Below are positions 11,341-19,267 of a stretch of 32,000 nucleotides of DNA, piece by piece (positions within the stretch are counted from its first letter, which is position 1; each line of letters starts with the position of its first letter). This DNA comes from Candidatus Heimdallarchaeota archaeon. Lineage in GTDB: Archaea > Asgardarchaeota > Heimdallarchaeia > JABLTI01. Under the pieces are notes generated by a model. That model searched no databases. It was given only the letters and a program-made list of their open reading frames with translations, and was not told where the DNA came from. Both the position numbers and the translations under genes were made by a program. Where the stretch lies: the NCBI GenBank assembly GCA_030614005.1, contig JAUWKS010000019.1, positions 1 to 32,000 of the forward strand, given 5' to 3'.

Positions 11341-11675
11341 GGTGAGGATTAAACGGTTTCCGGGTGCTCTCGTTAGCATCTGAGGAAGGTCCTTTCTTCC
11401 AGGCTAGCGATACAGTGAAAGCTGTCAAGCGGAATCTTGGCTCTGGGAATAGAAACGATACGTGAATACGGTCTAACAATGATACACGGCGTCTTCGGAA
11501 GCTTTGTTGAGGTTTACGTATACAAAGCGTTGAAACGACCCATCATCGCGGAAGCAAGCTCAAATTGGCTTCAATGACTTGCCAGGAGAAGCGGGTTGAG
11601 CGCGTAGATTGATACCGTGAGAGGAGCTCATCGCAAGGTGATCCTCGAAACAGAAAGAGGACTATTATCCTCTCC
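11341..11675 (+). ncRNA. rnpB: RNase P RNA, archaeal type A
   Basis: P1 GAGGAT/ATCCTC; P2 CGGTTTC/GATACCG; P4 GAGGAAGGTCCTTT with ACAGAAAGAGGACT; P5 CTTCC/GGAAG; AGAAAC and TGAAAC loops flanking a long P12 (ATACGTGAA/TTTACGTAT); P15 GCTCAA/TTGAGC; P16 TGGC/GCCA; P19 with a GCAA loop. Confidence 0.95.
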
Positions 11676-15745: not shown

Positions 15746-16870
15746 ATGATCCCTTTCGTTGAACCAACAGTATATGCCGATGATGAGAAATCAATGCTTG
15801 AATTTGATGCTATTGCTTCACGCCTAGGTATAACTGGTTATGCAGTTTACAATTTTTCAGTTAAAGAAGGAAAAAACACTATAGTGCAAGAGACAGTGGA
15901 ACATTTCTCAAGAAAAGATATTAAAATTACAAATCTAAATAAGGTACGTAATTTCCTTTCAAAGGAAAGAAAGCAATGTGAACTGTTGAGTATAACCACT
16001 ACAGATGCAAAAATCGCTCAGTGGGTAGTTAAGGATAATAGAGTTGATATTCTATCAATTCCTGTTTCAAAAATAAAAGAGATTATAACTGAACAATTAG
16101 CCAATGTTGCTGCTGCAAATCAAACTTTTCTTGAAATAGACTTAAGCTCAATAATACATTCTGCAAATAGGAAATCGATTATTCTACACAAATTAACTAG
16201 GGTTATGAGATTAATACTAAAACAAAGAGCACCTTTTGTTTTTACTACTAAAGCAAAAAATCCATTCGATTTAAGAGATATGCGCTCAATTATTGCACTA
16301 GGCAATCTTATTGGAGTTCCGGAACTGAGAACCAAAGATTGTATGAAAGCATTTTATGAAAGAATTCACCTGAACAAGAAAAAACTCAAAGATGAATTCA
16401 TTACAACAGGTATTTGGAAGAAAAGCAAGAATCAACTACCTAAAGAAACAAAGAGCAAAAAGAAAAAAACATTAGAAGTTGAGATTGATTCGGATGATTT
16501 GTCAGTAGAATTTATTAAACAGTCAGAAGAAAAAAGAAGGTTGGACAGACAGAGATATATTCTCTTTGAAATTCTTTCAGAGAAGAAATCGAAGTTTGAA
16601 AAGAAACATATTGAAGATTTAATATGGAATGAAATTGGCAATCATTTTGGATCTGTAGGTAGTTCTAGAATAGGAATGTTTTTCTCATACTTTAATTTAG
16701 AGAAGCAATTTGGAATTATTCGTTGTACCAATCATTCATTACAATCAATCAGAGCAGTCTTTTCATTCATTACTGATATTGAAGATGAAAAGGTTCTATT
16801 TCATATTATGAAGGTCTCAGGTACTATTCGTTCTTTAGTTAAAATAGCAAAGAAGAAAGAAAAGAAATAG
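15746..16870 (+). CDS. Fused RNase P protein subunits Rpp30 (aa ~1-225) and Pop5 (aa ~264-374)
   Basis: Rpp30-like RVDILS, FLEIDLSSII, PFVFTTKA.NPFDLR, FITTGIW. Pop5-like RQRYILFEI, FGSVGSS, GIIRC, KVSGTIR. One continuous frame. Confidence 0.9.
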   Translation: MIPFVEPTVYADDEKSMLEFDAIASRLGITGYAVYNFSVKEGKNTIVQETVEHFSRKDIKITNLNKVRNFLSKERKQCELLSITTTDAKIAQWVVKDNRVDILSIPVSKIKEIITEQLANVAAANQTFLEIDLSSIIHSANRKSIILHKLTRVMRLILKQRAPFVFTTKAKNPFDLRDMRSIIALGNLIGVPELRTKDCMKAFYERIHLNKKKLKDEFITTGIWKKSKNQLPKETKSKKKKTLEVEIDSDDLSVEFIKQSEEKRRLDRQRYILFEILSEKKSKFEKKHIEDLIWNEIGNHFGSVGSSRIGMFFSYFNLEKQFGIIRCTNHSLQSIRAVFSFITDIEDEKVLFHIMKVSGTIRSLVKIAKKKEKK

Positions 16871-16907: not shown

Positions 16908-17522
16908 CTATTCTTGTAGTTTTTGATTGTTAAACATGGTAATTTTCCAAATGTCATTTTCAGAACCCCTTTCAAGGATGTTTATCATGCAACTACCAAA
17001 CCATTCATCTAATTTTGTTGGTAGGAGATTTAAGATTCTAATTAAAATATGATATAATGTACCGCCATGACCAACAAGCAAGATTGTAGAATCTTCAGTG
17101 TTATTTTCTACAATTTCGAGAAATGCTTCTTGTATCCGCACAGTCATATCATAATTACTTTCTCCACCAGTAATTTTCTCTTCTACATTTACTAATGTTG
17201 AATCAAGATATTCTCTCTCTTCTTTTGTTATATCTGCTGATAACCTTCCTGTGAAATCTCCTGCATCACCTTCTCTCAATCTTTTATCGAGAATAATCTT
17301 TTCAATCCTAAGTTCATCACAAATTAGAGAAGCAGTTTCTGCAGCTCTTTTCAAATCAGAGGAATATACAGCATCAAATTTTAGATTATTTTCTGCTAAC
17401 TTTTTCCCCAAAGATTGAGCTTGTTCTCTCCCAAATGTTGTTAATGGTGTTGCTCTATGACCAGCTATTACTTTGTTTATGTTATCTTTACTTTGACCAT
17501 GCCTAACTAAATAGAATCTCAT
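16908..17522 (-). CDS. Histidine phosphatase family protein
   Basis: LVRHGQS, SSDLKRAAETA, LREGDAGDFTG, GGES, LVGHGG. Confidence 0.93.
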   Translation of the reverse strand: MRFYLVRHGQSKDNINKVIAGHRATPLTTFGREQAQSLGKKLAENNLKFDAVYSSDLKRAAETASLICDELRIEKIILDKRLREGDAGDFTGRLSADITKEEREYLDSTLVNVEEKITGGESNYDMTVRIQEAFLEIVENNTEDSTILLVGHGGTLYHILIRILNLLPTKLDEWFGSCMINILERGSENDIWKITMFNNQKLQE

Positions 17523-17638
17523 AACGTAACCTCAGATTATCTTATGGGAGATTTTTTTCAATATAAAACTCTTATTTTCATTTTAATTTGTTATATTTCA
17601 TTCTAATAAAGTAAAATAAAAAATAGAATGTAAAAAGA

Positions 17639-17714
17639 GGAGTCAGTTCGTCGCATGCTCATCATTTTTATGGCGTGGAGGCCATCAGGCTGGGGCGCTG
17701 TATCGTCATTCTCC
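17639..17714 (-). ncRNA. Box C/D methylation guide sRNA
   Basis: GGAG-A-ATGACGA(C)-TACAGCGCCCCAGC-CTGA(D')-TGGC ctccac GCCA taaa-ATGATGA(C')-GCATGCGACGAA-CTGA(D)-CTCC, followed by a T-rich tract. Confidence 0.9.
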
Positions 17715-17770
17715 AAGTCAATTATTCTAACATATTGCTAAAAGGTTTTGTATACAATTTAAAAGAATAA

Positions 17771-19267
17771 TTAATCTAGAGAAGGATCACCAACGGTAAT
17801 ATTTTTATCAAGAACAAAAGGTTCCGATGATTTCTCAGATTCAGAGGCATCATCAAAAATGTCATCGAAACCATCAAGTGCTCGAGAGGATTCTTCTTTT
17901 TCTTTTGCTAATTCAGCTATTTTCATATTGATTGAATCATCCAAGTGTCTTGCTGGTGTAAAGAAGTAAATTGCTATGAAAATAATTGCACCTAAAGCTC
18001 CAGAAACAGCAAATAAAATTCCTATAGGAACATATTCTCCAATTAAACCCGCTAAGAACATTCCAATCGGAGATATGGCCATTGACATAAACATTGTTGT
18101 TGAACTAACTCTGCCCATTTTTTCTTTCGGAACAACAAGTTGTAAAGAGGTACTAAAGCTTACATTTGCCATCGGATTGGGTACCATCCCAATAAAAAGA
18201 ATCAAACCAATAAGCCAGAATCTAATTGGCAATGTAGTTGGTACAAATACAAGTGCAATTTCCGCAGCAAATAATATCAACACACACACCAAAACAGCTC
18301 TAATCTTATTTTTGAATCCCTTGAAGAATGTCATAAAAAGTCCACCAAGAATTACACCAACTTGCATAAACCCTATAACAAGTGCATAACTCGCTTCTGT
18401 ACCTCCGTGAACTTTGCTAACAAATAACGGTAATAGAGTACTAATAGGAGAAAAGAAGAAATTGATTAAGGTAGCACCAATCATTATCGCTAATAATCCT
18501 TTAATGCCTTTAATTACACTGAAACCTTCTTTGAACTGAGCAGAGAATTTTGGTCGATTGCTTTTTTCTTTTTGAACTGGTGAAGGTATTTTAATCAATA
18601 GCAATGGAATGACTGCAATTGCGAAAGTAATAGCATCAATCCACATAGTTAAACTGACATCAAATATGTTCAATAACAGCGCTCCCAAAGCGGGACCTAT
18701 AACTTGAATTACACCGCTTACAAGATAAGCTACGCCATTCATTCTACCAAGATGTTTTTGTGGAACCATTGTTGGTATTAATGCACTGACAACTGGAGAA
18801 TGAAATGCCTGCATCGCTCCTCGCAAACCTAACGTGATAAAAACACTTACAATTAACAATGTTTTATTCGAAATTTGAGTTGGATCTGCAGGATTAGGAG
18901 TATAAAATATCATAAAAATAATTGTAAGCATAACAGTGAATAGAGCTTGAATGGTATCAACAGTAAATAACAAAGGTTTTCTTTTAGCTCTATCTGCAAT
19001 TACTCCAGAAAATGGTGCTACTAAAAGAAAGGGACCTAAACTGGCTAGTGCAGCTAAACCTAGCATTAGTTCACTTTGGGTTGTTTCAGACATCCACCAG
19101 ATAAGAACAAATGATACTACTGATGAACCTAATATCGATATCTGTTGTCCTGAAAAGAAGAAGATAAAATCTCGAAATCGCTTTTTCTCTTCTTGCGCAA
19201 TTTCTGCCTGACTCGCGCCATTTAATTCTAATCCCTTATCAAACTCTTCAGGATTGCCATTAACCAT
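17771..19267 (-). CDS. MFS transporter (MefA/DHA3-like efflux)
   Basis: FFFSGQQISILGS, motif A GVIADRAKRK, LIPTMVP..HLGRMNG, LQLVVP.EKMGRV, about 12 hydrophobic segments, acidic tail. Confidence 0.92.
   Translation of the reverse strand: MVNGNPEEFDKGLELNGASQAEIAQEEKKRFRDFIFFFSGQQISILGSSVVSFVLIWWMSETTQSELMLGLAALASLGPFLLVAPFSGVIADRAKRKPLLFTVDTIQALFTVMLTIIFMIFYTPNPADPTQISNKTLLIVSVFITLGLRGAMQAFHSPVVSALIPTMVPQKHLGRMNGVAYLVSGVIQVIGPALGALLLNIFDVSLTMWIDAITFAIAVIPLLLIKIPSPVQKEKSNRPKFSAQFKEGFSVIKGIKGLLAIMIGATLINFFFSPISTLLPLFVSKVHGGTEASYALVIGFMQVGVILGGLFMTFFKGFKNKIRAVLVCVLILFAAEIALVFVPTTLPIRFWLIGLILFIGMVPNPMANVSFSTSLQLVVPKEKMGRVSSTTMFMSMAISPIGMFLAGLIGEYVPIGILFAVSGALGAIIFIAIYFFTPARHLDDSINMKIAELAKEKEESSRALDGFDDIFDDASESEKSSEPFVLDKNITVGDPSLD

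Follow-up and report, generated by a model that had tools for sequence, protein, structure and literature searches.

Ribose methylation of the P-loop guanosine G2251 of 23S rRNA (E. coli numbering) is among the very few rRNA modifications common to bacteria and eukaryotes, and its makers differ: a dedicated protein in bacteria, a snoRNA in eukaryotes. In E. coli the protein is RlmB, a protein-only SPOUT enzyme. In yeast the equivalent Gm2619 is guided, together with Um2724, by snR67 (PMC5699541), and the counterparts of E. coli Gm2251 are given as Gm2620 in Arabidopsis and Gm4196 in humans (PMC11542601). C/D-guided methylation of the equivalent nucleotide has already been predicted in three archaea, including Methanopyrus kandleri sR13 (Dennis et al., 2015; PMC4644070). 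One further archaeal candidate was set aside: a review table equates Gm1950 of H. marismortui with E. coli Gm2251 (PMC11542601), but the primary analysis places it at E. coli 1909 (PMC2584109). A literature search for C/D sRNAs of Asgard archaea found no paper.

The locus described here, from a Heimdall-group member of the Asgard archaea, encodes a real and conserved box C/D sRNA with two guides. It resembles the archaeal sRNAs of Dennis et al. (2015; PMC4644070) in RNA class, in machinery, and in target nucleotide (their alignment position G2520 corresponds to E. coli G2251), and the prediction logic—an antisense guide combined with the +5 rule—is alike. The partner targets differ, being alignment G2490 or U2544 in those sRNAs and U2460 in helix 89 here, as does the guide employed: G2520 is entered for M. 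kandleri sR13 in the second column of targets, which is taken as the D guide (PMC4644070), whereas the Asgard sRNA uses D'. Those sRNAs belong to other lineages.

Eukaryotic C/D guide genes are nucleolar and often intronic, and those of snR67 and U31 are longer than the Asgard sRNA gene. Both snR67 and the U31/SNORD31 RNAs of plants and animals address the same universally conserved P-loop guanosine with a guide upstream of D' (PMC5699541; PMC11542601), and share the core CGCCCCAG with the Asgard sRNA. The second guide distinguishes them: that of snR67 is directed to Um2724 (PMC5699541) and that of the Asgard sRNA to the U2460 equivalent, which would lie near yeast 2829, judging by the offset from Gm2619. 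RlmB acts at the same nucleotide with the same product as predicted for the sRNA, though as protein alone. Halobacterial C/D sRNAs also have a long D'–C' region, of 19–21 nt (Grosjean et al., 2008; PMC2584109), compared with 17–22 nt in the family of this genome; here, however, the linker folds into a hairpin that covaries and has a conserved loop of CUCCAC type, and the boxes lie near consensus.

Architecture and genomic setting of the sRNA

The stretch of DNA analyzed, referred to below as the window, is 32,000 nt long and represents contig C82 of a 3.6-Mb assembly that is 90% complete. An earlier note, made from the sequence alone, had described a 76-nt unit of boxes, stem, hairpin, and T-tract here, and all of the elements that it named were found where it had placed them; it gave no strand, and while its coordinates stand, the unit sits on the minus strand. 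The note's guess at a probable Asgard archaeon as host also holds. Read on that strand, the order is GGAG-A-AUGACGA-UACAGCGCCCCAGC-CUGA-UGGCCUCCACGCCA-UAAAA-AUGAUGA-GCAUGCGACGAA-CUGA-CUCC (Table 1). The arrangement is that of an archaeal box C/D sRNA, with terminal C and D boxes (AUGACGA and CUGA), a short closing stem (GGAG/CUCC), and internal D' and C' boxes (CUGA and AUGAUGA) that are conserved within the family of this genome. The deviant fifth position of the C box is C, U, or A among orthologues in the sRNA family alignment. The hairpin that follows D' is likely the canonical stem of the internal C'/D' K-turn.

Table 1. Features of the sRNA locus, in window positions
Feature	Position	Strand	Evidence or remark
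Whole box C/D sRNA, 76 nt	17639..17714	minus	covariance model R1 90.2 bits, R2 67.7 bits; orthologues in 10/12 family genomes
Terminal stem 5' arm, GGAG	17711..17714	minus	pairs with CUCC 17639-17642; covaries across families
Single A between GGAG and C box	17710	minus	sequence read
C box AUGACGA (consensus RUGAUGA)	17703..17709	minus	one deviation, position 5
D' guide UACAGCGCCCCAGC, 14-nt spacer	17689..17702	minus	3' nine nt pair with 23S P-loop
D' box CUGA	17685..17688	minus	invariant in own family
Hairpin UGGC-CUCCAC-GCCA, directly 3' of D'	17671..17684	minus	folds in all 10 orthologues
UAAAA linker	17666..17670	minus	sequence read
C' box AUGAUGA	17659..17665	minus	sequence read; conserved in own family
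D guide GCAUGCGACGAA, 12 nt	17647..17658	minus	pairs with 5' strand of 23S helix 89
D box CUGA	17643..17646	minus	sequence read; G001 orthologue has CCGA
Terminal stem 3' arm, CUCC	17639..17642	minus	pairs with GGAG; covariation
Promoter-like element ACAAAA-CC-TTTTAG	17738..17751	minus	TTTTAG ends 23 nt before first G of sRNA
T5 and T6 tracts, just downstream of sRNA	17618..17636	minus	sequence read

Spacers between the boxes of archaeal C/D sRNAs usually have about 12 nt. The D spacer has 12 nt; the D' spacer has 14 nt in this sRNA and its two nearest relatives, as opposed to 12 nt in the remaining orthologues. In vitro, archaeal sRNPs work best with 12 nt between the boxes, and the longer D' spacer could reduce activity at that guide.

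The sRNA is intergenic, flanked by minus-strand ORFs for an MFS transporter (17771-19267) and a histidine phosphatase (16908-17522), and has a GC content of 55% compared with 33.5% for the genome. The ACAAAA-CC-TTTTAG element is a putative promoter of TATA/BRE type, and the T-tracts likely serve as an archaeal transcription stop, both assignments being drawn from sequence. A strict four-box regular expression run over the whole genome matches this locus alone, a result that says nothing on other sRNAs, and shuffled sequences are predicted to fold about as stably as the real one (z = −0.76), which is expected for guide RNAs and constitutes neutral evidence. The DNA of the locus is also matched in cold-seep and marine-sediment metagenomes; no RNA data set is among the matches listed.

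Guide–target pairing and the methylation machinery

The genome has one copy of the 23S gene (G000:C95:25794-29052), and this contains GCUGGGGCG at LSU 2353–2361, forming nine contiguous Watson–Crick pairs with the D' spacer. The P-loop pairing proposed in the earlier note is thus borne out in the host's own rRNA, except for its suggested extension into GUA, where the host 23S reads GCU. The fifth guide nucleotide from D' stands opposite LSU G2357, which alignment to E. coli 23S equates with G2251, the second G of UGGGG, as had been predicted by the +5 rule. (The annotated E. coli 23S, of 2903 nt, is 1 nt short; canonical positions are annotated positions plus 1, as checked on the GGGAUAACAGGC and CUGGGGCGG landmarks.) The same register, with +5 at G2251, is held in all nine genomes compared with their own 23S, that is, this genome and eight others.

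Taken alone, the D' pairing is borderline, 5% of shuffled guides attaining a 9-bp run in the LSU (p about 0.05). The comparative data are strong. Within the family, the core CGCCCCAG is unchanged and the D' spacer varies in its unpaired 5' portion; the conserved D' nucleotides coincide exactly with the paired ones in the family alignment. Across the nine genomes, P-loop guides read CGCCCCAG, CCGUCCCAG, CCGCUCCAG, or similar, and CCGUCCCAG and CCGCUCCAG, which occur in other families, still pair via G·U. Opposite the invariant CUGGGGCGG, the guides of the nine genomes differ by C/U only, keeping G–C or G·U, with the exception of one mismatch in a genome of family f6 (G036). Family f3, represented by 22 genomes, has kept only the 5' half of the RNA (C box, ACCGUCCCAGU, and CUGA) and has a 3' half of unrelated sequence, with poor matches to the C' and D boxes (e.g., G033:C11:3977-4039). 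This retention of the 5' half alone points to the P-loop guide as the constrained part. The loose pattern CGYYYCAGNCTGA—used for family f3 only, and not specific enough in families of higher GC, in which the controls give similar counts—matched 7 of 7 genomes there, six of them with the exact CGTCCCAGTCTGA among the matches listed.

In the LSU, the D guide matches best at helix 89, with whose 5' strand (LSU 2564–2574) it forms eight Watson–Crick pairs, one A·G mismatch, and two further pairs; its +5 position falls on U2567, the equivalent of E. coli U2460. Both guides therefore show complementarity starting beside their box that is of the size usual for the class (about 8–12 bp), with 9 bp at D' and 8 + 2 bp at D. 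Between 3% and 14% of shuffles, depending on the measure, attain the D-guide match. The paired core CAUGCGACGA is invariant within the family, and the conserved guide A opposite G2465 is a mismatch throughout it. Across families, guide and target covary: at rRNA 2458, C or U occurs with guide G or A, and the same holds at 2463, while 2464 is A opposite guide U in this lineage and elsewhere G opposite C or U. The +5 position falls on U2460 in families f1, f2, f8, and f18; in family f6 the register is off by one and points to G2459, not U2460. Given the weakness of the single-sequence match, it is the comparative data, including the recurrence in the family and the stem covariation described below, that decide that the sRNA is more than a chance resemblance.

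The 23S genes of several relatives (G009, G005, G016, G012, and G118) carry insertions of about 190–390 nt directly 5' of AACAGAG, at about E. coli 2450, which are probably rRNA introns. The helix 89 target of the D guide starts a few nucleotides downstream of this insertion point. At the same point, the 23S of the present genome has no insertion.

The proteins of a C/D RNP are encoded by the host: fibrillarin and Nop5 by adjacent genes on contig C124, and L7Ae on contig C30. An RlmB-type enzyme, the alternative that the earlier note had raised along with this machinery, was not detected in the genome, the sole SpoU protein being TrmJ-like (TrmJ/YjtD subfamily; 209 bits against TIGR00050, cut-off 167; 43 bits against the RlmB model, cut-off 160). 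None of the 151 Asgard genomes searched has an RlmB equivalog at the cut-off, which 10 of 14 named control genomes pass. Three genomes of family f14 (G187, G108, and G181) have SpoU proteins near it, with 141–150 bits vs. 160. The sRNA model mostly finds nothing or weak hits in this family.

In the mechanism that we propose, which follows what is established for C/D RNPs, the C and D boxes would form a terminal K-turn closed by GGAG/CUCC, and D' and C' an internal K-turn with the small hairpin as its canonical stem; L7Ae would bind the K-turns, and Nop5 and fibrillarin would assemble there. The nine 3' nucleotides of the D' spacer would pair with the equivalents of E. coli 2247–2255, and fibrillarin would 2'-O-methylate the nucleotide opposite the fifth guide position, G2251 of the P-loop. 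The D spacer would likewise pair with helix 89, on its 5' strand (E. coli 2457–2467), and U2460 would be methylated. Because the two sites border the peptidyl-transferase center, the RNP may also hold both segments together during 50S folding. Transcription, RNP assembly, and both methylations are what we infer from the computational analysis. With good confidence, although from sequence, we regard the locus as an archaeal box C/D sRNA gene with transcription of its own, guiding methylation of G2251, a nucleotide methylated almost universally, and of U2460; the RNA would most likely install Gm at the former and Um at the latter equivalent position of 23S rRNA.

Paired guides of archaeal sRNAs may serve as folding chaperones. 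It could be argued that the C/D RNP acts chiefly in this way, tethering helix 80 (the P-loop) to helix 89 with weak or absent methylation; this reading is compatible with a methylation guide rather than exclusive of it. The two guide targets lie about 210 nt apart in 23S and meet at the peptidyl-transferase center, around which archaeal methylation sites cluster (Dennis et al., 2015; PMC4644070); the D' spacer of this species is longer than the usual 12 nt, and in several relatives a probable rRNA intron interrupts the 23S just upstream of the D target. A pure tether, however, would not need the +5 register on G2251 that is kept in all genomes checked, and G2251 carries the methyl group in both bacteria and eukaryotes (PMC11542601; PMC5699541) while no protein enzyme for it was found here. 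We therefore consider a chiefly chaperoning role improbable.

Rather less probable still is that this is a C/D sRNA whose true targets lie in 16S rRNA, tRNA, or mRNA and whose 23S matches are fortuitous. The single-sequence statistics are weak, as noted above, the assembly is without a 16S gene, and one perfect 10-nt match to the D-guide core occurs elsewhere in the genome (contig C116). Yet 16S rRNA from two relatives of the same genus forms at most 7–8 pairs including G·U, with no conserved register, and nothing above 8 pairs was found among 34 tRNAs. Moreover, the guide–target covariation in helix 89 and the C/U-only drift opposite an invariant P-loop would be hard to explain by other targets.

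Orthologues and covariation among Asgard archaea

The predicted dual methylation guide is recovered well beyond this genome. For orthologues, whose existence the earlier note had left to a search, BLAST, pattern search, and covariance model (scores of 85–96 bits) each give a single copy per genome in 10 of the family's 12 genomes; the two genomes without a match are 69% and 84% complete. A pattern of C box, GCCCCAG, N, and CUGA likewise matches 10 of the 12, with 0 hits for the reversed control pattern. Family members are identical in their boxes, in the terminal stem, and in exactly those segments of the two guides that pair (CGCCCCAG and CAUGCGACGA), while the linker varies. The internal hairpin, in turn, is preserved by compensatory change, its stem reading UGGC/GCCA, GGCG/CGCC, UGGU/ACCA, GACG/CGUC, or GGG/CCC among the 10 orthologues.

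Upstream of the sRNA, a motif ACAAA-N2-TTTTTAG stands 23–24 nt before GGAG in 9 of the 10 orthologues (it is not evident at the G011 copy), and is retained despite different flanking genes. In a synteny comparison, the flanking genes are common to the closest relatives only, which argues that the sRNA is a free-standing gene and not a cis or leader element of its neighbors.

Within the closest orthologue (G001:C209:414-489), the D box reads CCGA alongside the C box AUGACGA. This combination would put C·C at the third K-turn pair.

The hairpin loop CUCCAC (17675-17680, minus) is conserved, with the variants CUCCA, UUCCAC, and CUCC, while its stem changes. It repeats the 3'-terminal CUCC and could alternatively pair with the 5' GGAG. 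As an LSU-pairing element, the loop was considered and rejected: it has complements at LSU 841 and 2180, and such counts of a 6-mer are expected by chance.

Beyond the family, weak hits of the first covariance model proved to be compact homologues of 58–70 nt, those of 58 nt in family f2 missing the internal hairpin. Structural covariation was evaluated on an alignment of 17 sequences from three families, in which the changes count for only some three independent lineages. In all 17 sequences the terminal stem is fully paired (100%); it has four pairs altered on both sides and appears across families as GGAG/CUCC, UGGC/GCCA, and GGAGC/GCUCC. The K-turn geometry is likewise maintained: the GA dinucleotides, which allow tandem G·A pairs, are invariant, and the Watson–Crick pair that C-box position 6 makes with D-box position 1 covaries, changing from G–C to U–A, with A–U in family f6. 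Overall pairing is 97.7% compared with 30–49% in slid controls, and 0 of 500 shuffles attain the observed score. A second model, R2, built from the 17-sequence alignment, finds matches in 89 of 151 Asgard genomes at E <= 0.1, spanning more than 20 families, many of them at 1e-8 to 1e-17. The box C/D sRNA reading offered in the earlier note thus holds computationally, in its boxes, stems, covariation, and machinery.

That there is no stand-alone RNA, and that the motifs are a chance constellation or an L7Ae-binding K-turn in the 5' leader of the histidine phosphatase gene—which lies on the same strand 116 nt downstream, L7Ae being reported to bind K-turns in mRNAs (PMC5539422)—is scarcely credible against the conservation of the sequence over more than 20 Asgard families with different neighbors, its own conserved upstream motif and T-tracts, and the zero matches of the reversed control pattern.

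Relation to eukaryotic guides and neighboring features

The type of RNA and its target are known from other archaea, and to this extent the present result is an advance at the level of annotation. What is new is the phylum-wide family, the helix 89 partner guide with its guide–target covariation, and two traits specific to this lineage, the hairpin and the 14-nt spacer. The occurrence of a guide throughout the Asgard phylum, together with the absence of the bacterial-type enzyme, supports an RNA-guided route to Gm2251 that is older than eukaryotes. For cultured Asgard archaea, equivalents of Gm2251 and Um2460 are predicted.

The earlier note had named snR67 and U31 as eukaryotic counterparts, a comparison with which both the guidance of yeast Gm2619 by snR67 (PMC5699541) and the top sub-threshold Rfam hits agree. 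The best hit of the sRNA is snoU31b (RF01285), with 21.1 bits (E = 0.077) vs. a threshold of 37, and one Asgard homologue recovers snR67 (RF01177) with 25.2 bits vs. a threshold of 55; the scores thus fall below the gathering thresholds of these families. The alignments rest on the boxes and the CGCCCCA guide. A common target would itself impose a common sequence, so that homology to snR67/U31 is unproven and descent is not distinguishable from convergence on these data; the link is functional, and common descent is possible. It is tempting to see in the Asgard-wide P-loop guide family the direct forerunner of eukaryotic U31/SNORD31/snR67, a proposal that we consider doubtful. If true, one methylation guide gene would have passed from an archaeal ancestor to the first eukaryotes, with the D' P-loop guide kept and the second guide exchanged.

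Across the window, Rfam at gathering thresholds reports no C/D family; the one RNA that it finds is an archaeal RNase P RNA (RF00373, 125 bits; 11342-11674, plus). About 4 kb downstream of this gene, a single ORF of 374 aa (15746-16870, plus) contains both an RNase P p30 domain (residues 49–201) and an Rpp14/Pop5 domain (residues 270–364), and resembles a natural fusion of two protein subunits of RNase P, which usually are separate partners in a complex.
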